Shown here one piece after another: positions 48,823-60,413 of a stretch of DNA of 64,000 bases. Both the position numbers and the translations under genes were made by a program. The stretch is from a virus (lineage: Duplodnaviria > Caudoviricetes), in the IMG/VR virus record IMGVR_UViG_3300013368_000005, positions 32,001 through 96,000 of that record; one strand, 5' to 3'. Position 1 is the first letter of the stretch. Each line of letters begins with the position of its first letter. The notes beneath the pieces were generated by a model. That model did no database searches, was not told where the DNA came from, and saw only the letters and a program-made list of their open reading frames with translations.

Positions 48823-49194
48823 TTATTGTTTATCTTCTAATTCTTTTTTCATTATATCATCTATAAGTGGTTTCTTAGCTCGATATACTTTTATCCAAAA
48901 TGCTAAATTTTTTATTTTACCTAAAACTTCAAATCCTAACATACCTCCAACAAAGCATGGAAGTATAAATAGTTTCATAGATATTTTAGAGAGTATAAAT
49001 TCACTTAACGAAAATAAAATTATAGATGATACTGTTGTCGATATCAATATTCTACTTATTTTTACCTTAGTGTCCTTTTCAGTAAAAGTGTTATAGGTGT
49101 CTTTAATTATAGCCCCCAATAAACTAAAAACAAATATAAATAAAAAATCCATTATACTTGAAATAAGTGCTACTTTGTCAATTACCATCCCCAT
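48823..49194 (-). CDS. Holin-like membrane protein (3 TM, charged C-tail)
   Basis: FSLLGAII / ISTTVSSIILF / CFVGGMLGFE; late transcription unit. Confidence 0.6.
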   Translation of the reverse strand: MGMVIDKVALISSIMDFLFIFVFSLLGAIIKDTYNTFTEKDTKVKISRILISTTVSSIILFSLSEFILSKISMKLFILPCFVGGMLGFEVLGKIKNLAFWIKVYRAKKPLIDDIMKKELEDKQ

Positions 49195-50279: not shown

Positions 50280-51221
50280 TTAACCAAATCTATTTTCTGA
50301 ATTACATAAACATCTTCCGTTGCAATTACATGTGCCATTTCCTCTGGTGACGCATGAACATAGTTCATAAACATCACATGTACATCCAGATGTTGGGGTT
50401 CTACTCACACACATACAATCTGTATTACATGTACATGCTTCAATTGTTGTTCTACTAACACAGTTACATACATTATCTGCATTACAAGTACAATCTGGAG
50501 AAAATGTTCTATCAACACATAAACAACCATGTTGTATACATATTGTCTCTGCTGTTCTGTCAACACAGGTACAACCAGTATCCGAATTACTAGTGCATTG
50601 AGTGCCTGTTCTAGTGACACATAAGCAATTAGATGGACAATCACCGCCAGTTACTTCCCCTGAAGTTCTTGAGTTACAATCACAATTTGTTATTCCTACT
50701 CTCGATACGCATGTACATAAAATATTAGAATCACATGTGTCAACTGCTGTTCTTGATACACATGAACAAGTATTATCATTACAACTACAAGAATATCCTG
50801 TTCTAGCAACACATGAACATGAGACATTCTCAATACATTCTAATTCTGATGTTCTAGCCACACAACTACATATATTACTTGAACAAATATCGCCTGATGT
50901 TCTTGCAACACAATTACAAGATGTATGAGCATCACAGGAGAGTTCTGAAGTTCTAGTAACGCAATTACATGTAGTATCTACATGTGAATCACATGTTAAT
51001 GGCATTATATTATCCATAATATCCTCTATATCACCTATAGAGACAGTATTATCTTTTAATGCAAAATTATCTATATGAGCTATACAAGTTCCAAGGTTTC
51101 TTTGATTATTCATATCATCTAATAAATCTTTTAATTGACCTAATGAATTATATTGAGGAGGATTTGTATAACCCTTTTTTATTTGTAATAAGTTTTTTAA
51201 TCTTATTAAACTCTTATTCAT
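50280..51221 (-). CDS. Cys-rich repeat protein with about 13 CxCxxR[T/V/G] units; candidate radical SAM substrate
   Basis: ~75 aa non-repetitive N-region, then CNCVTRT, CNCVART, CSCVART x2, CSCVSRT, CTCVSRV, CDCNSRT, CLCVTRT, CTCVDRT, CLCVDRT, CNCVSRT, CMCVSRT, CSCVTRG. Confidence 0.85.
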   Translation of the reverse strand: MNKSLIRLKNLLQIKKGYTNPPQYNSLGQLKDLLDDMNNQRNLGTCIAHIDNFALKDNTVSIGDIEDIMDNIMPLTCDSHVDTTCNCVTRTSELSCDAHTSCNCVARTSGDICSSNICSCVARTSELECIENVSCSCVARTGYSCSCNDNTCSCVSRTAVDTCDSNILCTCVSRVGITNCDCNSRTSGEVTGGDCPSNCLCVTRTGTQCTSNSDTGCTCVDRTAETICIQHGCLCVDRTFSPDCTCNADNVCNCVSRTTIEACTCNTDCMCVSRTPTSGCTCDVYELCSCVTRGNGTCNCNGRCLCNSENRFG

Positions 51222-51237
51222 AATTTATCCTCCTATA

Positions 51238-52011
51238 TTATTTATATAAAATAGTCCATCTAAAGCCACCAACAAAACTTCCTGAATTACCTACAAATAT
51301 ATTTGTAGCATCAGCTCTAATCCATGTTTCGCCTAAATATCCTTGAGGATTTTCAATAGGCATAATCATTATATTTGTTGGTGTAAATGATAATCCATGG
51401 GCTATAGTAACTTCATTATTACTTCCAGCAAAATTTGCTATACCACTTTTATCTGTTATTTTTTGACTTAATTTTTCTGCTATTGAAGTAGCAAAATTAG
51501 GATCTTCTCCTAATGCTTTAGCTAATTCAGATAATGTATTTAATGTCTCAGGCGAAGAATCAATTAAATTAGTAATTGCTGTTTCTACCCCTTCAGTTAT
51601 TTTAGCATCTGTTTCCGTTTTATTATAGTAATCAACTAAAACGTTTGCTATTATCTCTTCTACTGTTAATTGAGGTTTGTTTAGATTAGGTACACCTTTA
51701 AATGCAATAAAATTAAATACTGTATCTATACCTGTAGTCCCCCAATCATTTCCTAAAGACATTATAGCTGTACCTTCTGGATTTATTGTGTATGACGTTT
51801 CAGGAATATATTTACCAGCAATAAATACAAATAATAAATCATAATTAATATTAAAATTTTCTATACCAATATTTACACTAGGTGCAGTTCCTGTAATAGT
51901 AATATTATTTTTTCTATATCCTATAATACCAGTAGCAGCAGCTTTTTCAAATTGCATAAATAAATCATTGCTTATTTCGTGACCTGTTACTTTTCCTCCT
52001 ATACTAGCCAT
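51238..52011 (-). CDS. Tail fibre-like protein
   Basis: LIDSSPETLNTLSELAKALGEDPNFATSI is a common tail-fibre segment; YYNKTETD repeat; C-terminal VTIAHGLSFTP; late promoter at 52038-52049. Confidence 0.8.
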   Translation of the reverse strand: MASIGGKVTGHEISNDLFMQFEKAAATGIIGYRKNNITITGTAPSVNIGIENFNINYDLLFVFIAGKYIPETSYTINPEGTAIMSLGNDWGTTGIDTVFNFIAFKGVPNLNKPQLTVEEIIANVLVDYYNKTETDAKITEGVETAITNLIDSSPETLNTLSELAKALGEDPNFATSIAEKLSQKITDKSGIANFAGSNNEVTIAHGLSFTPTNIMIMPIENPQGYLGETWIRADATNIFVGNSGSFVGGFRWTILYK

Positions 52012-52096
52012 ATTATTTCACTCCTTCATTTATATATTATTATAATGTTAAAATTGGGTAGGATTAATCCTACCCAACTATACTTATTATATAATA

Positions 52097-53005
52097 TCAT
52101 ATTTGTAATAGTTGTTGATAATAATCATATACTTTTTTTCTCATATTATATACTATGATATTACTCTCTTCTAATGTATGTTGTGTTTTGATAATTTTAT
52201 AATTTAAGTCTTTAGATGATGTATAATCATTACTATTTCTACCATAAGTTTCGCCTATAACTTTACCAGATGAATCTTTAACATATGTTCTGATATCATT
52301 TTTAGGAGGTGGCACTAGAAAATCTGATATTTGTATACCTTCAAGTTTATTTGATATAATATCATGAGCTAAATCATGCATTTCAGACAGATATCTATTT
52401 AAATAATTTTCATCTACAGACATTGTAGATTCTATAATACCTATATTCATTCTACACCTTATGCCTTTTTCATGTAGTTCATGAATACTTTCTCTTAAAA
52501 AAGCTATATTATACGGATGAGTAACAATATGCATATTGTAATTAATACCATTTCTATTTAACTTATCTATATTTTCTATTACTTTATCAAATGTATTCTC
52601 ATGTGTATCCTTAAATACTCTAAGCTGATTGGCAATTTTATTACCGTCTAAACTTATAGAAAATACTATATTTTTATTCTCTTTAAGAAATTTAATGTGT
52701 TCATCTTCTAATATAGTGCCATTAGTTGTAATATATATTGTATTTACTATATTATTAAATGAAGTGTTTCTTTCGGTAAGTTCTATCCATTCATATGCAC
52801 TTTTAATATTATCAAAAGCTAACATTGGTTCTCCACCTAGAAATTCTATATTAAATCTTTTATTATGACCAGCGAAATTGTATATATTATTTATTAAGTC
52901 TTCGATTTCTTCTTTACAATATATAGATTCTTTATCTTTTTCGTAACAATATTTACAATTACAATTACATTCCTTGGTTACATGAATGACATAAGTTTCT
53001 ATCAT
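52097..53005 (-). CDS. Radical SAM protein without a SPASM domain
   Basis: CNCNCKYC (CxxxCxxC), FLGGEP, ITTNGT and SISLDG; no C-terminal Cys cluster. Confidence 0.92.
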   Translation of the reverse strand: MIETYVIHVTKECNCNCKYCYEKDKESIYCKEEIEDLINNIYNFAGHNKRFNIEFLGGEPMLAFDNIKSAYEWIELTERNTSFNNIVNTIYITTNGTILEDEHIKFLKENKNIVFSISLDGNKIANQLRVFKDTHENTFDKVIENIDKLNRNGINYNMHIVTHPYNIAFLRESIHELHEKGIRCRMNIGIIESTMSVDENYLNRYLSEMHDLAHDIISNKLEGIQISDFLVPPPKNDIRTYVKDSSGKVIGETYGRNSNDYTSSKDLNYKIIKTQHTLEESNIIVYNMRKKVYDYYQQLLQI

Positions 53006-53018
53006 AATTATTCACCAC

Positions 53019-54557
53019 CTAGAGATTTTTTATTATTTGCGTAAGAGCTTCAGGTATCAATTCTGTTACACTAGTATACATATCTTCAATTTTATTATTT
53101 AAGAATTGCTTTTCTAAAATTAATCCAGTATATTCTTCGATAGTTAAACCTTCTTCTTCAGCACGTTCTAATATTTTATTATAAGTAGATTTAGCTAATT
53201 TTATTGTAACAATATTATCTGATTTAATCTCAACTTTATTAGCTGATATCATATCTGCTTTGAGTGTAAACTTATTATTAGTCTCTTCGCTATCTATTAA
53301 ATTAAATTGTGTACCTCTTGAATCACATAAACATGCTGGGTTGTCTGGATTATTTCCTATGGTTGAACTTATTTTATTATCTTTTCTATCTAATACTCCC
53401 AATTTATAATACTCCTCTACTTCTTTTTTTATATATGATTGTATTTCTTTTTCTATTTTACTCATTTGACATCTATACCCTCTAGATACAGATAATATAG
53501 AACCATTTTCACAAAGATTTTCTGCTATACATCTATAACAATGATAGCAGTCACAATCTGGATCATCTATTTTACAACTTAAATCATTATTATCATACTC
53601 TACGAATAATAATCTTTTTTGATCGTCTATACCATCAAATATATTACCTATTATATATTGTCTTTCTGGATCATTAAAATATATATGATGACAAGGTGAA
53701 ATATCTCCATTGGCAGTAATAGTAATAAAACTATTACCAGCTCCACAAGGTTTATTCGAAAAATCACAAGCATTAGATAAACTTCTGTCTAATGGTGCAT
53801 AATTTCTTATTTCATTTAAATTACCTTCCTTTTCTACTCTATTTAATATATAGTCTGCTATTTTGCCTAATTGTTCTTTATACATATTAACATCTTTTTG
53901 AGTCCAATCATTACTATGAATAGGCATAAACCATATATGTTTTAAACCCCAATCTTCTCTAAAGAATTTATAACTTTCAAATAAATATTTCATAGAAAAA
54001 TCATTTAAACATCCATGTATGCTTAAATTATCAGGTTTATTTTTGAAAAGATTTTTCCATTTAGGGATATTCTTTTCTACTATTTGAAAACTACCTTTTT
54101 TATTATGTGTTATTCTAAAAGCATCTTGAACTTTTTGAATACCATCTACAGATAATTGAACAGTAAGATTAACGTTATATATTCCTTTACTAAGTATTCT
54201 TTCTAATTCTGTTGTCAGTATGGTACCATTTGTTATCATATTCATAGACACGGGTATCTTTGTTATACTACTTATAGCACTAGCTTCATCGATTATAAAT
54301 TCCAATATCTCTGGCTCTAATGTTGGCTCTCCTCCAAATAATAATATATTTACCCGTTGCTCTCCAAATCCATTATCTATATTTTTTTTCGCATTGTCAA
54401 ATAAGAATTTAATACCTTGATTAGCAACTTCATAAGACATTTTATTCTTATTATGTTTTTCGAAACAATATGAGCAAGCTAGATTACAATTTTCTGTAAC
54501 TAGAAAACTTGCTGCAGTGGGTTGTAAAATCTTTTTAATGTCGATTATTTTTATCAT
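53019..54557 (-). CDS. Radical SAM/SPASM peptide maturase-like protein with a C-terminal extension
   Basis: CNLACSYC, FGGEP, ITNGT, LSVDG; SPASM CGAG...GDISPC...C..CDCYHCYRC...C; late promoter at 54577-54588. Confidence 0.93.
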   Translation of the reverse strand: MIKIIDIKKILQPTAASFLVTENCNLACSYCFEKHNKNKMSYEVANQGIKFLFDNAKKNIDNGFGEQRVNILLFGGEPTLEPEILEFIIDEASAISSITKIPVSMNMITNGTILTTELERILSKGIYNVNLTVQLSVDGIQKVQDAFRITHNKKGSFQIVEKNIPKWKNLFKNKPDNLSIHGCLNDFSMKYLFESYKFFREDWGLKHIWFMPIHSNDWTQKDVNMYKEQLGKIADYILNRVEKEGNLNEIRNYAPLDRSLSNACDFSNKPCGAGNSFITITANGDISPCHHIYFNDPERQYIIGNIFDGIDDQKRLLFVEYDNNDLSCKIDDPDCDCYHCYRCIAENLCENGSILSVSRGYRCQMSKIEKEIQSYIKKEVEEYYKLGVLDRKDNKISSTIGNNPDNPACLCDSRGTQFNLIDSEETNNKFTLKADMISANKVEIKSDNIVTIKLAKSTYNKILERAEEEGLTIEEYTGLILEKQFLNNKIEDMYTSVTELIPEALTQIIKNL

Positions 54558-54645: not shown

Positions 54646-55494
54646 TTAGCAAGTAGCAACCCAACTTGTTCCATTATAATATTTCATAATACCATTTTTC
54701 CAACCTAAATTATAAGGTTGAGGTACATTTGATGTTACCCATGAACTCCCATTCCATACATGACAACCAGATCTATAAGTTGCATCCCAGCCTTCTTCTG
54801 CTTGTAAATCCGATTCATAACTTCCATTTAATGAAGACACTGCAAATTGAATACCATCATAAGCACCAGCAGCACTATTAACAGGAAAGTCATATCGATT
54901 ACTTACAACAGTACTTTGATAACTCCAATTGGCATTCCATGTTCCAGTAGAATGATTATAATATCTAGCATATACTTTATATCCAGTTGCTCCAGATGCT
55001 CCAGTAAAGGTAACTCTCATTTCTTCTCCTTTATTGAATAATCCTGAAACAGATACGTTTGATGGTTTGTTTGGAATTGTTTGAATTTGATCTAATGTAA
55101 CAGTTTTTCCTACACTCATCGTTCCTATCCAAACACCTGTATAAGTAATTTCTATAGCAAATGTTGCTGCTAGATCTACTGAACGAGATCCATCTGAATT
55201 ATGAGGCACTGTAGCTGTTCTAGTAACTAATACATTTTGCCAAATTTGACTATCATCATTTCTATCTGGAACAGATTTACTAAAATTTTGCGTACTTCCA
55301 TTTATTGTGGTTGTTCCATTTTTTACTAATCCCCATGTACTTACAGAACTACTTTCCATTATTACTGAAATTGTTACAGAGGATGAATTAGTAGCTTGAT
55401 TTGGAGTTGATGACCATTGAATACCTAATCTAACATTATATCTCTCTAAAGCAGAACCACCATAATACCCACTCCAAAATATTCCACTAGCCAT
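54646..55494 (-). CDS. Tail or receptor-binding-like protein (DUF859-like N-domain plus FN3-like domain)
   Basis: NQATNSSSVT...VPHNSDGSRSV...LDQI; PNKPSNVSV...GATGYKVY; WNGSSW / YNGTSW. Confidence 0.7.
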   Translation of the reverse strand: MASGIFWSGYYGGSALERYNVRLGIQWSSTPNQATNSSSVTISVIMESSSVSTWGLVKNGTTTINGSTQNFSKSVPDRNDDSQIWQNVLVTRTATVPHNSDGSRSVDLAATFAIEITYTGVWIGTMSVGKTVTLDQIQTIPNKPSNVSVSGLFNKGEEMRVTFTGASGATGYKVYARYYNHSTGTWNANWSYQSTVVSNRYDFPVNSAAGAYDGIQFAVSSLNGSYESDLQAEEGWDATYRSGCHVWNGSSWVTSNVPQPYNLGWKNGIMKYYNGTSWVATC

Positions 55495-55509: not shown

Positions 55510-57090
55510 TTATATCCAACTTATCCACACATCTCCAGTTTTAGGGCTAGATGGTGCAGTTTTTTGTATCTTTATTTTACTATCTAATGTAGTTATTGTA
55601 TTATTTATAGTATTTACTTTACCATCCATTTCAGTTTTAGTATAATAACCACCAAATTTGTTATTTATAGTGGTTATCTTACCATCTATTTCACCTTTGG
55701 TATAATAATTACTTAGACTATTGGATAAGCTAGATATACTATTATTTATAGTATTTATCTTACTGTCTATATTCGCTTTATTATAATAATTATTAGCAAG
55801 ATTATCAGATAAGCTATCTATACTATTATTTATAGTATTTACTATATTATCTATCTCTAATTTAGTATAATAATCATTAAATTTTTCTATAGCACCAGTT
55901 ATCATATCTTGTATTTCTTTAGATAATGCTTCCCATGGTATAGAGCCAGGATCTATTATAGAGCCATCCACTCCTACTTCTGATATAGGAACGTTAACTA
56001 ATCCTATAATATTAAATACTGTTGGGTTTTCTGGTGTTCCTTCCCATATTTCTGTTTCAGGACATAATATATTAATACCATCTTCTGTAATTGTATAATC
56101 TTCATTTTCTGCTAAAAATACACTATTTTTGAATACTAGTAAAAAGTCAACACCCTTTCTAAATTTAATTCCTATTTCAATATAGTTTACATTTTGTGTT
56201 ATAGCTACAGTATTTTTTCTTGCTACAAATCCTCCATTAATTCCATCTTCTCCAGTAGCTATTACAATCCATCCTGTTCCATCAAACTGCTTTATAGCCT
56301 TAGCAGAAGTATCAAACCAGATGTCTCCTCTTATTCTATCATATGGTTCACTAACACTAACAATATATCTATATCCATTTACCATATCAGCATCTATTAC
56401 GCTATCATCTGATATAATTTGTGCATAATTAAATATATATGTTAATCTTTCATCTTGATTAATTACAGGATATGATTGAGAAAAAATAAGATTATAGTCC
56501 TCTGCAATAACATAATCTTCTGTTTTTACAAGTTCATCATTTCGTAATACAACCATTGGAAATTTAGTAAAATCATAACCAACAAAAGGCACAGGTATTC
56601 TAAATATTCTCTGAGCTGTTCTTTCAACAAAATAATGTTCCATTTGAGTTTTTAACTCAAATCTTTTTCCTTCTTTAATCATATCGTCTAAAACACTTGA
56701 TAATGGGGTACCATCATCATTAAATACTTGGCTTGTTAATGTTCTGGGAGCAGTAGCTATACCATTTTCCTCTATTGTCGCTGGAACTAGTTCTCTTAAT
56801 ATCGCACCACCTAATATAACATCATCTGTTATTCTCATCCAAGAATATTTAAATTTATAAGTCATATTTGTTTCTTTTACAAGATATATCATAGATAAGT
56901 CTGGTGTTTCAATTTGTTCTCTTTCATATTCAGTTGCTAATATGATAATATTTTCAACTAGAACTCTTTCAGCATTGTTATTATCTACGAATATTTCATT
57001 TGTGTCTGTACATTCAATAATCTGACCTGTAATTATAGGTATTTTTACTAATCCAGGTTTTAATGCAGATATATATTTTATTATAGTCAT
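55510..57090 (-). CDS. Tail fibre protein
   Basis: Four YY[T/N]KxxxD repeats; GDIWFDT...FDGTGW; C-terminal APSSPKTGDVWI; late promoter at 57120-57131. Confidence 0.8.
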   Translation of the reverse strand: MTIIKYISALKPGLVKIPIITGQIIECTDTNEIFVDNNNAERVLVENIIILATEYEREQIETPDLSMIYLVKETNMTYKFKYSWMRITDDVILGGAILRELVPATIEENGIATAPRTLTSQVFNDDGTPLSSVLDDMIKEGKRFELKTQMEHYFVERTAQRIFRIPVPFVGYDFTKFPMVVLRNDELVKTEDYVIAEDYNLIFSQSYPVINQDERLTYIFNYAQIISDDSVIDADMVNGYRYIVSVSEPYDRIRGDIWFDTSAKAIKQFDGTGWIVIATGEDGINGGFVARKNTVAITQNVNYIEIGIKFRKGVDFLLVFKNSVFLAENEDYTITEDGINILCPETEIWEGTPENPTVFNIIGLVNVPISEVGVDGSIIDPGSIPWEALSKEIQDMITGAIEKFNDYYTKLEIDNIVNTINNSIDSLSDNLANNYYNKANIDSKINTINNSISSLSNSLSNYYTKGEIDGKITTINNKFGGYYTKTEMDGKVNTINNTITTLDSKIKIQKTAPSSPKTGDVWISWI

Positions 57091-57178
57091 AATAACTCCT
57101 CCTTATTTAGTTTACTTATTATTATTATGTTTGCTGAAGACAAATAGAGTGTATATAATATTATATACACTCTATTAT

Positions 57179-57904
57179 TTATCTTATAGAATTTAATAGT
57201 TTTATCAAAAATGTCATATCTGTCCGTTTAACTATTTCTGATGTACTCTTCTTTGTAGGTAAAGTTCCTCTTATAAATTGAGTTAATGGTATCATTGCAT
57301 CTATAAATTCATTATAATAATTTATATGCCAGATACAGGTGGAATCTATACCTACAAAAGAAAATGCTGTTAAATACTTATATATCCTAAATTCATTTAT
57401 TTTTTGTCTAAGTGAGATTACATCGTTTATAGTAATGTGTGTTTGTTCACCTATCTTCTTTTCTTGCCATGTAAAATTAGCTGGTCTAGGTTTTTGATCC
57501 TGTTGAATATTACACTGACATGCTATTTGACACATATCTTGACAATAGCTTTGACAAGTAGTTAAACATGCTTTTTCACATGTAAATTGACATAACATTT
57601 GACAATTTTCTTGGCAATTTAATTCACAACCAGTTTGACAAGCCGTTTGACAAACAGTTTGGCAAGTTTGACATCCTTGTCGTTCACATTGGCATACTGA
57701 CAAACATGTTGCTAAGCATGCTTCATTTACTAATTGACAAGCATTTTCACATTGATTGCATTCTGCCTCTATGTCCATACACATACATGTATTCATACAA
57801 GCATCTGAACAACTGCTATTTGCTAAAGTTACGTTATTAGAATCATTCAAGAAGTCAGGAATAGTTATTTCAGTACCTTTTAAAAAATCGCTCATTTCGA
57901 TCAC
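57179..57904 (-). CDS. CxxxC-repeat protein fused to a C-terminal globular domain; candidate radical SAM substrate; probable ATG at 57895
   Basis: ~30 aa leader, then CSDACMNTC...CQTVCQTACQTGCELNCQENCQMLCQFTCEKACLTTCQSYCQDMCQIACQC, then a ~100 aa RPANFTW... domain. Its GGAGGTG SD overlaps the rSAM stop codon. Confidence 0.85.
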   Translation of the reverse strand: MIEMSDFLKGTEITIPDFLNDSNNVTLANSSCSDACMNTCMCMDIEAECNQCENACQLVNEACLATCLSVCQCERQGCQTCQTVCQTACQTGCELNCQENCQMLCQFTCEKACLTTCQSYCQDMCQIACQCNIQQDQKPRPANFTWQEKKIGEQTHITINDVISLRQKINEFRIYKYLTAFSFVGIDSTCIWHINYYNEFIDAMIPLTQFIRGTLPTKKSTSEIVKRTDMTFLIKLLNSIR

Positions 57905-59157
57905 CTCCTGTTAAATTGAGTTTTAAATAATTCATTTGACTCACCTGCTAACGTATTCATTATATTTATCGATGTATCTAAGCATATATTATAAAATTTA
58001 CATAATATTTCTGGAACTATTGTTAAATCGCCACAGGAAAAATAATTGTTTATAGAGCAATACCCATCACATATATTATGGAGTCTGCATGTCTTACACC
58101 TTTTTGAATCAGAACACCTGACTTTTTTTACATCAAACGAGTTTATAATTTCCCATCTTTTATCATTATAGATTTCAGTGAATAAATTACCTATTATAAA
58201 TTTATCTCCATTTTCTCTGTTTCCTACCATTTCTTGGCAAGAATATATTTCTCCATCGGGACCTATTGATGCAAATCTATTAGAACCTAATCCGCATCTA
58301 CCATATGCAGGTGCATCTGTAGCATTTCTAAACGATGCAGTTTCATTAAATCTATTAATCTTTTTTATATTACCAAATGCATAATCAAATTGCGAAATAG
58401 ATATATCTCTACCTTCTCTTATTAATTCTATATACCAATTAGCAACTTCATTGATCGCTATTACTAGATCATTAACCTCTTGATTAGTCCATTTAGTAAA
58501 TACATTAACAATAAAAAATATATTATTATATCCTTTTTCTATAGCAAATTTACAATTATGCAATAATTGTTTACAATTATCATGATCTAATGTCATTCTA
58601 AAAGTCATATTAGGATTTAATTTTAGAGCTTTAGGGATATTATTTATTATTAAATCAAATGATGATTTTCCATTATGAAGAGGTCTATTTAAATCTTGTG
58701 TAGGTTTATCTCCATCAATACTGATCATAATTCCAATATTATTATCTTTTATAAATTGTAATCTTTCCTCATTCAATAATGTACCATTGGTCGTCATAGA
58801 TAATTGAAAATTATTATTACATTGCTTTCTAATATATTTAGTCAATGGTACAATTATTTCATCCCATTTGAGCATGGGTTCTCCACCAAAGAAATTGATA
58901 CTAGGAATGTCCCCTTGTATTTTAGAATTTTCTATAATAAAATCTACAGCTCTTTTTGCAGTATCATAAGACATTTCTTTAGCATATTGATCTATAAAAC
59001 AATACTTACATTTAAGATTACATTTTTGTGTAACATTGAGAAATATGGAAGTTATTAATGGTAAGTCTCCATCTTTCCATATTTGCTCTACTGTTCTAAA
59101 ATTATTATTTTCGCATTGTTGATTTACACATTGTTCACAATTCATATTAATTACCAC
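57901..59157 (-). CDS. Radical SAM/SPASM peptide maturase-like protein; probable ATG at 59145
   Basis: CNLKCKYC, FFGGEP, MTTNGT, ISIDG; SPASM CGLG...GEIYSC...CKTCRLHNICDGYC...C. Confidence 0.94.
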   Translation of the reverse strand: MVINMNCEQCVNQQCENNNFRTVEQIWKDGDLPLITSIFLNVTQKCNLKCKYCFIDQYAKEMSYDTAKRAVDFIIENSKIQGDIPSINFFGGEPMLKWDEIIVPLTKYIRKQCNNNFQLSMTTNGTLLNEERLQFIKDNNIGIMISIDGDKPTQDLNRPLHNGKSSFDLIINNIPKALKLNPNMTFRMTLDHDNCKQLLHNCKFAIEKGYNNIFFIVNVFTKWTNQEVNDLVIAINEVANWYIELIREGRDISISQFDYAFGNIKKINRFNETASFRNATDAPAYGRCGLGSNRFASIGPDGEIYSCQEMVGNRENGDKFIIGNLFTEIYNDKRWEIINSFDVKKVRCSDSKRCKTCRLHNICDGYCSINNYFSCGDLTIVPEILCKFYNICLDTSINIMNTLAGESNELFKTQFNRR

Positions 59158-59207: not shown

Positions 59208-60413
59208 TTATGAGAAATAAGCACCACCAAGTGTAATCCATCCAGAAGTTGTTTTTAATTTTATTACTTTATTTATACTATCTATCCATAACTCATTTTC
59301 TAAAGCATTAACAGGTTCCATAGTCTGAATGTAATATGTCGGTTTCTTAGATAGCATGGCATCAACTTCAGATTTTGTATATACCATATTAGTATCTACC
59401 TTAGAAGCTATCTGTTGGATTATAGTGCTTGACATATTGGGATTACTTGCCAACATATTAGAAAGTTGGGTCAAAGTAGCTAAATCTGTTGGGGAAGCAT
59501 TGATTATACTTTGAATTAAATCTTGAGTTTCTTGTTTTGTATAAGTATTATATCCATCAGCCTTTGATGTAAAGTAAGTTATTTGATCTTCGGTAACAAA
59601 TTTGTTATACATATCTTGAACTATACTCTCTGCTCTGATAGCTATATCATCAGCAAGTTTTATTGATGTTATAGATTTATCTGCATAATTTTTGGTTGTA
59701 AGAACTGTATTGGCGTTTAAATCATAAAATCTAGTATAAAAAAATATAAATAATGCAAACTCTCCTTGATTTAGGGCATCATTTGGGTTTTTAATTACTA
59801 AATCATCGCCTTTTACTTCATACTTTCCACTAAAATTATAGCCTCTAACAATTACAGCCATCTTATCTTGAGCCAAATCATAATTAGCTATCGGATATGG
59901 TATTTTTATTATCATCTGTTTATCTCTAGTAGCATGTACATAAATAGATTTACTAGCTGTAACTGCTATTTTATCAATAGCCTCTAAGGATTCTGCTAAT
60001 GTACTTCCATCTTCCATAATTACAACACTTGATAATGTTGTAGGAGCGATACTCTGCTCCATTGCAGCATAAAGTCCTTTTGTAGAATAAGTACTTTGTA
60101 AGAACTCATCTGAAGAGAATGCTGTTGTTAAGAAATCTTGTTGATCTTGTATAGTAAGCCATATTAAACCATCGTGCTTGTATACATTACCAGTTTCTTT
60201 AACATAATAAACTTTAGTCATTGACGTATATTGTAATAGGTCTTTATCAGCTTCGGTTGATAGATATATTATTTCATTTAATATTATACGTTGTTCATCT
60301 GATAGATCAAAAAAAGATTCTTTTGTATCAGTGCAATATATTATTTGATTTGTAAATAATCGAGTATTTCCTAACATATCTCGTATTATTTCTTTATAAC
60401 TAACAAATGACAT
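59208..60413 (-). CDS. Tail fibre protein, paralog of 55510-57090
   Basis: QIIYCTDTKE, APTTLSS, YTKQET / YTKSEVD, ASPTDLATLTQL, NELWID; late promoter at 60439-60450. Confidence 0.8.
   Translation of the reverse strand: MSFVSYKEIIRDMLGNTRLFTNQIIYCTDTKESFFDLSDEQRIILNEIIYLSTEADKDLLQYTSMTKVYYVKETGNVYKHDGLIWLTIQDQQDFLTTAFSSDEFLQSTYSTKGLYAAMEQSIAPTTLSSVVIMEDGSTLAESLEAIDKIAVTASKSIYVHATRDKQMIIKIPYPIANYDLAQDKMAVIVRGYNFSGKYEVKGDDLVIKNPNDALNQGEFALFIFFYTRFYDLNANTVLTTKNYADKSITSIKLADDIAIRAESIVQDMYNKFVTEDQITYFTSKADGYNTYTKQETQDLIQSIINASPTDLATLTQLSNMLASNPNMSSTIIQQIASKVDTNMVYTKSEVDAMLSKKPTYYIQTMEPVNALENELWIDSINKVIKLKTTSGWITLGGAYFS

Follow-up and report, generated by a model that had tools for sequence, protein, structure and literature searches.

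A two-gene cassette within a tail-fibre cluster

The 64,000-nt window analysed here, that is, the whole stretch of DNA presented above, comes from an IMG/VR virus record of 186.6 kb, with a G+C content of about 25%. Its minus strand carries a cassette of two genes, encoding a radical S-adenosylmethionine (SAM)/SPASM enzyme and, directly downstream, a protein with a long run of regularly spaced cysteines. The second product, a candidate substrate of the first, is referred to below as the target protein, and its cysteine run as the ladder. Both genes lie within a minus-strand run, extending from 63.9 kb to 49.2 kb, of genes that match tail-fibre and tail PHROGs. Moreover, the only three radical SAM genes of the record and its only two extremely Cys-rich proteins are found among these tail-fibre and tail genes. 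The features of the locus, in window positions, are as follows.

59208-60413, 55510-57090, 54646-55494 and 51238-52011, minus strand: tail-fibre and tail PHROG matches (PHROG search)
57901-59145, minus strand: radical SAM/SPASM enzyme, 414 aa (Pfam Radical_SAM, 1.5e-18; NCBIfam and PDB matches)
59113-59139, minus strand: N-terminal Cys triad of the enzyme (C3, C6, C11), rich in C/Q/E/N (read from the sequence)
58999-59022, minus strand: CxxxCxxC radical SAM cluster motif (C42, C46, C49), invariant in a four-orthologue alignment
58000-58296, minus strand: SPASM region with seven auxiliary-cluster Cys (C284, C303, C350, C353, C359, C363, C382), all invariant in the same alignment
57901-57909, minus strand: Shine-Dalgarno sequence AGGAGG fused to the enzyme stop (AGGAGGTGA), 8 nt ahead of the target ATG (read from the sequence)
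57179-57895, minus strand: target protein, 238 aa, made up of head, Cys ladder and C-terminal domain (CTD) (open reading frame; same product on two other assemblies; homologues found)
57812-57895, minus strand: Cys-free head, 28 aa (residues 1-28), with the ITIPDFL motif
57848-57868, minus strand: ITIPDFL, residues 10-16, an instance of the head motif I-x-[IV]-P-x-x-L
57512-57811, minus strand: Cys ladder (residues 29-128) with 26 Cys, built of C-[Q/E]-x-x units (spacing and shuffle test)
57182-57496, minus strand: three-helix CTD, residues 134-238 (105 aa) (structure model, PHROG match and profile search, given below)
57143-57176, no strand assigned: perfect 15-bp inverted repeat, terminator-like, 3 nt past the target stop (repeat scan, called on the plus strand only)

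The two genes are tightly coupled. The enzyme gene starts at ATG 59145, with a ribosome-binding site (GGTGG) ahead of it, and its stop codon, TGA 57903-57901, falls within AGGAGGTGA (57909-57901), the ribosome-binding site of the target gene. The original prediction had described this overlap of the substrate's Shine-Dalgarno sequence with the enzyme stop, and it is seen in the sequence; the target start, however, was corrected. The earlier coordinates implied GTG 57904, which was set aside for ATG 57895, the best start, lying 8 nt past AGGAGG. Identical 414-aa and 238-aa products are called on two other assemblies. The cassette consists of these two genes only, bounded by a 62-nt gap and the hairpin, and contains neither a TIGR04119-type partner protein nor a protease or exporter gene.

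The Cys ladder and its accompanying enzyme

The head of the target protein corresponds to the leader of about 30 aa that had been proposed to precede the cysteines, and the ladder agrees with the earlier description of more than 25 Cys at a mostly four-residue period: 17 of its 25 successive Cys intervals are exactly four residues long. The protein contains 17 CxxxC pairs; when the same residues were shuffled 10,000 times, the number of pairs averaged 6.1 and never exceeded 14. The ladder is non-random, and tandem Cys-Xaa-Xaa-Xaa units are present. The residue after Cys is Q in nine units of the window ladder and E in three. In 12 relatives, comprising 187 units, position +1 is occupied by Q (52%) or E (31%; Q/E together 83%), followed by T/S and then by a small residue. 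In a full-length AlphaFold2 (AF2) model, the head comes out as disordered and the ladder as only weakly helical, with a predicted local distance difference test score (pLDDT) of about 45-55.

The head motif I-x-[IV]-P-x-x-L is found in one or two copies in nine of 13 proteins that combine a ladder with the CTD, the window's protein included, and also in two further Cys-rich CTD proteins (up to four copies) and in ladder proteins of other viral loci. In the remaining four of the 13 (P0002, P0097, P0128 and P0019), the ladder starts directly, with no head. Types of head motif cluster on the enzyme tree, and the window enzyme groups with enzymes whose targets have a different head. Since the head types are not strictly congruent with that tree, co-evolution of enzyme and head was dropped as a line of evidence.

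Among the NCBIfam maturase families, the best match of the enzyme is PapB (NF047865; 227.8 bits, cut-off 340), followed by the nif11-type maturase (159.7 bits), the SCIFF maturase (152.6 bits, cut-off 425), QhpD (TIGR03906; 139.3 bits, cut-off 453) and the CXXX-repeat maturase (TIGR04115; 118.2 bits, cut-off 350). These scores place the enzyme, whose cluster motifs are intact, in the class of thioether-forming peptide maturases as a member of none of the named families. The best PDB match is CteB (5wgg, E 2e-30). Because enzyme residue 30 is aligned to CteB residue 95, the enzyme has no N-terminal RRE domain; only 41 residues stand ahead of the first cluster Cys, and 20 of 22 related enzymes, those read from their start codons, have 15-36 residues before the cluster motif. 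The original prediction had also pointed to a resemblance between the enzyme N-terminus and the substrate. The C/Q/E/N-rich Cys triad is indeed present, but among 23 related enzymes a comparable extension occurs only at locus L009 and perhaps at L040, so that the likeness is lineage-specific and not a family trait.

The association of enzyme and ladder extends to other phages. A word-indexed protein search with the target returned two relatives besides the target itself, and no match was obtained by tblastn of the whole target or blastn of the surrounding 7 kb against phage records, or by a pattern scan of IMG/VR with the target. A scan of IMG/VR with the enzyme alignment, in turn, yielded 36 loci, and four related enzymes are 36-45% identical to that of the window. 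A radical SAM gene lies directly upstream of a ladder-CTD protein in L002, L009 and L010. Adjacency was counted over the 20 distinct viral loci that have downstream sequence: in 18 of them, the next gene or genes downstream of the enzyme encode a protein with at least 11 Cys, and in 14 of those 18, a C[QE]xx-type ladder is contained in a protein of 219-785 aa. The C-terminal modules of the ladder proteins vary, being the CTD, fibronectin type III (Fn3) domains, immunoglobulin (Ig)-like domains of the phrog_10993 type, or a stretch in common with a phage amidase. At five or more loci, the beginning of the next large gene resembles a lysis amidase.

Conversely, no radical SAM gene is found anywhere in the genomes of the phages Basilisk and Thrax2, which encode the CTD without a ladder, or on the contigs L050 and L051, which do the same. 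The enzyme tracks the Cys ladder and not the CTD, these four ladder-less cases being devoid of radical SAM genes. Of the arguments for the ladder as the likely substrate, this co-occurrence is the strongest at hand.

Individual loci show variations of the cassette. The gene order in L002 is tape measure, Dit, Tal, enzyme, a 57-aa peptide, a 410-aa target and a fibre gene of more than 1,189 aa. The 57-aa peptide (L002:6850-7023) consists of a head and a ladder and stands alone between the radical SAM gene and the 410-aa ladder protein, which is head-less. The two lie in the same frame, one TAG apart; fusion by TAG read-through was rejected, as TAG ends other genes on this contig, and they are regarded as two genes. 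At L010:398-2412, the target of an enzyme-target pair translates only when TAG is read as Q, which points to a stop-codon-recoded phage. L040:6001-9200 represents a more complex variant, in which a 242-aa Cys-rich protein is surrounded by several radical SAM genes.

The C-terminal domain and comparison with known systems

The folded-looking domain of about 100 aa that the original prediction had placed at the end of the protein is modelled by AF2 as three helices behind a short strand region, with a pLDDT of 88.9. A search of this domain alone against phage proteins, proposed earlier as a check, gave matches from tail modules. The CTD matches positions 495-593 of the 594 positions of phrog_37329 (E 1.2e-5), and tblastn matched 15 Bacillus phage records, where it corresponds to the C-terminus of 593-aa proteins such as gp52 of Basilisk and the 'fibronectin-like protein' of Thrax2. 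In both phages, this gene is the last of the tail module, with the tail fibre before it and lysis genes after it, and its product consists of Fn3-like repeats followed by the CTD. That gp52 is a tail-associated structural protein has been put forward as speculation only (PMC6145125).

A profile built from three C-terminal domains, when searched against 1.84 billion representatives, matched 1,299 clusters at E ≤ 0.001, of which 681 remain at E ≤ 1e-10. Among the 150 best matches, a single one has the CTD elsewhere than at the C-terminal end, and a CxxxC-rich part precedes the domain in 16. Pfam fn3 is found in 32 of 61 ladder-less CTD proteins, and Ig-like domains in some others; many CTD proteins are one Fn3 domain plus the CTD (about 200 aa) or begin directly with Fn3 or Ig. 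In metagenomic siphovirus-type contigs, relatives come right after Dit/Tal genes, and P0009 directly follows a Tal gene. Because the matches are either the last genes of tail modules or neighbours of Dit/Tal, the sequence relationships link the CTD to tail-module proteins. The window CTD aligns end to end with its relatives, retains most near-invariant residues (R137, P138, W143, I166, N167, F169, R170, Y172 and K173), and the ladder-CTD junction is conserved.

The CTD fold has no match among solved structures: Foldseek found nothing in the PDB at E ≤ 0.001 with the CTD model, and the exhaustive VIA-align search returned generic helical proteins only, Z being 6.2 at best. Searches of BFVD and the ESM Atlas brought up nothing but uncharacterised phage proteins and the terminal parts of Ig/Fn3/Flg_new arrays. 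One ESM Atlas row suggested Peptidase_S74 (TM 0.71); this assignment was rejected, since none of 61 members matches that Pfam family. On L050 (2875-3447) and L051 (2559-3098), two unrelated contigs, a Cu_amine_oxidN1-like gene of about 180-190 aa adjoins the ladder-less CTD gene on the opposite strand.

The nearest defined kind of system is the CXXX-repeat radical SAM system (targets TIGR04114/TIGR04117, maturase TIGR04115, partner TIGR04119; PF27846), in which, as in the window, a radical SAM/SPASM enzyme adjoins a protein in which every fourth residue is a Cys. The window target gives no match to TIGR04114 or TIGR04117 at E ≤ 10, and its relatives peak at 17.1 bits for the former (the L002 57-aa peptide; cut-off 20) and 15.6 bits for the latter (cut-off 50). 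The window target differs in being a 238-aa protein that ends in a phage tail-module domain, and its cassette lacks a partner protein. No paper on the CXXX-repeat system, which is defined only by computation as far as could be found, came up in full-text searches, and neither did a description of a phage radical SAM/Cys-ladder system such as that of the window.

Other comparisons concern systems with defined chemistry. With PapB/PapA (freyrasin) and the CteB/SCIFF ranthipeptides, the target shares repeated short Cys units with a side-chain acceptor near each Cys. The differences are that the window enzyme has no RRE, that the presumed acceptor is mostly Gln and not Asp/Glu, and that the target is a folded-domain protein of a phage tail module and not a small secreted peptide. 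QhpD is a radical SAM/SPASM enzyme that forms several Cys-to-Asp/Glu thioethers in QhpC, the gamma subunit of quinohemoprotein amine dehydrogenase, which stays in a larger assembly. The retention of a modified polypeptide in an assembly is the likeness here; QhpC, however, has three cross-links in about 80 residues, no periodic ladder and no phage context.

Among tail-module proteins, gp52 of Basilisk, phrog_37329 and the larger set of [Fn3/Ig]n-CTD proteins share the C-terminal three-helix domain and the tail-module setting, but have Fn3/Ig arrays in place of the Cys ladder, and the Basilisk and Thrax2 phages have no radical SAM gene. T4 Hoc carries Ig-like display domains and, after them, a small particle-binding domain at the C-terminus. 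The analogy is limited to architecture. Some ladder proteins have Ig-like modules matching the 'Hoc-like' phrog_10993; the CTD has no sequence or fold match to the binding domain of Hoc, and the genes lie in tail, not head, modules.

A second, different unit (50280-54557) is present in the window, with two radical SAM enzymes and a Cys-rich protein. One enzyme (53019-54557) is a 512-aa radical SAM/SPASM protein that matches TIGR04119 at 74.1 bits (cut-off 150), and the other, of 302 aa, has no SPASM region. The Cys-rich protein (50280-51221; 313 aa, 47 Cys in CxCVxRT-type units) has no Pfam, NCBIfam or PHROG match. Its non-repeat part is at the N-terminus, as had been stated, so that its architecture is opposite to that of the target; the proposed comparison of the CTD with its N-terminal 75 aa revealed no sequence similarity.

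The window also encodes a virion structural protein. The open reading frame at 39635-41197 matches the beta subunit of a phage multisubunit RNA polymerase (phrog_2987, 2.9e-58), which fits a jumbo-phage-like lifestyle; the IMG/VR label of the record is provirus. At the end of the tail cluster, a 123-aa hydrophobic protein (48823-49194) with no PHROG match may be a holin.

Possible modification of a putative tail-associated protein

Taken as a whole, the cassette is probably best explained as a tail-cluster unit whose enzyme cross-links the ladder of a tail-associated accessory protein. The enzyme would be translated together with its target and would act as an RRE-less radical SAM/SPASM protein of the thioether-forming (ranthipeptide/QhpD-like) kind, removing hydrogen from a side-chain carbon close to each Cys to close a thioether. 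The prime candidate acceptor would be the Gln/Glu at position +1 (or +5 from the preceding Cys), and the stretch of 100 residues may in this way become a chain of small non-reducible rings. The target would not be a free peptide and would stay fused to the three-helix CTD. Because the CTD caps Fn3/Ig arrays of tail modules in many phages, the modified ladder probably substitutes, on the accessory protein, for Ig-like display or spacer domains. In the PapB system, Cys is linked to the carbon adjacent to the carboxylate of Asp/Glu at distances from i+1 to i+7 (PMC12373016).

Several observations weigh against this explanation. PapB is so far reported to need a carboxylate acceptor (PMC12373016), whereas Gln is the commonest residue after Cys here. 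The enzyme reaches the curated cut-off of no NCBIfam maturase family, and the RRE domain through which PapB and CteB bind their leaders is missing from its N-terminus. In addition, the AF2 helices across the ladder are of low confidence, the window CTD has Val where about 90% of its relatives have Trp, and the four head-less relatives suggest that the 'leader' of the window protein may be no leader.

The polarity of the protein has to be weighed separately. In the original prediction, the CTD anchors the Cys run to the virion, and this is plausible; the many members that are only one Fn3 domain plus the CTD make it a reasonable candidate for attachment, as in T4 Hoc. A distal, ligand-binding role would be just as compatible with the R/W/N/Y/K positions of the CTD that are conserved across very diverse phages. 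It is rather unlikely, yet worth serious consideration, that the arrangement is reversed, with the N-terminal head (I-x-I-P-x-x-L) or the ladder docked on the baseplate or fibre and a distal CTD binding a ligand, for example, a host cell-wall component; the relation of enzyme and target would be unchanged. Fibre-type phage proteins usually attach by the N-terminus and bind their target with the C-terminus, which is the layout that a reversed protein would have. An enzyme without an RRE does not require the head to be a recognition leader, and repeated copies of the head motif would be unusual for leaders of RiPPs (peptides made by the ribosome and modified after translation). Near-invariant R, P, W, N, F, Y and K residues over about 1,300 diverse clusters would be more in keeping with a shared ligand than with a virion partner that co-evolves, and other C-terminal modules too are found fused to the ladder, namely the phrog_10993 Ig-like domains and the stretch shared with an amidase. 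Such a polarity is, however, at odds with the CTD proteins that have one Fn3 domain or start with Fn3/Ig, in which the CTD is the sole candidate for specific attachment, and with the ladder proteins that have no head.

Two further readings concern the fate and the chemistry of the ladder. That it is modified, cut from the head and/or the CTD and released as a RiPP-like peptide (a toxin, signal or metal binder) seems very improbable, even if the layout of head plus core is like that of RiPP precursors, the closest enzyme families all mature peptides, and the L002 peptide is a stand-alone form between enzyme and large protein. The cassette has no gene for proteolysis or export and ends directly in a terminator-like hairpin; large proteins consistently carry the ladder as an in-frame fusion with Fn3, Ig or the CTD, with a conserved junction to the latter, and the cassette is always within tail modules. 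It is also very improbable that the ladder is a metal-, Fe-S-binding or disulfide domain with no enzymatic cross-links, while the radical SAM enzyme acts elsewhere, for instance on a small molecule or fibre protein. In a helix, which is the structure weakly predicted by AF2, Cys at i and i+4 would share one face, and the scores of the enzyme below all family cut-offs would be compatible with another role. Nevertheless, the enzyme follows the ladder over very different genomes and architectures and is absent where the CTD occurs without it, its gene is start-stop coupled to the ladder gene, and metal binding leaves the conservation of Q/E after Cys unexplained. Cross-linking of a ladder that stays on a tail-associated protein is regarded as the most likely explanation.

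On a broader level, phages of anaerobes possibly apply RiPP-type radical SAM chemistry to their own particles, with a thioether-ring ladder replacing Ig/Fn3 domains and the CTD serving as a general docking module for either; this wider proposal is a tentative one. If true, it would be the first radical SAM-dependent post-translational modification of a structural protein of a virus. To our knowledge, radical SAM enzymes are known to install thioethers in small secreted peptides and in one bacterial enzyme subunit, and not in virus particles. The RRE-less maturase would be of interest for peptide engineering, since it may recognise its repetitive core directly. The finding also provides a handle on a very large uncharacterised phage domain family of about 1,300 clusters. 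If the ladder is stapled and located on the tail, it would give phages a rod or display element resistant to proteases and reduction, with a possible bearing on the stability of particles in guts and sediments and on adsorption.

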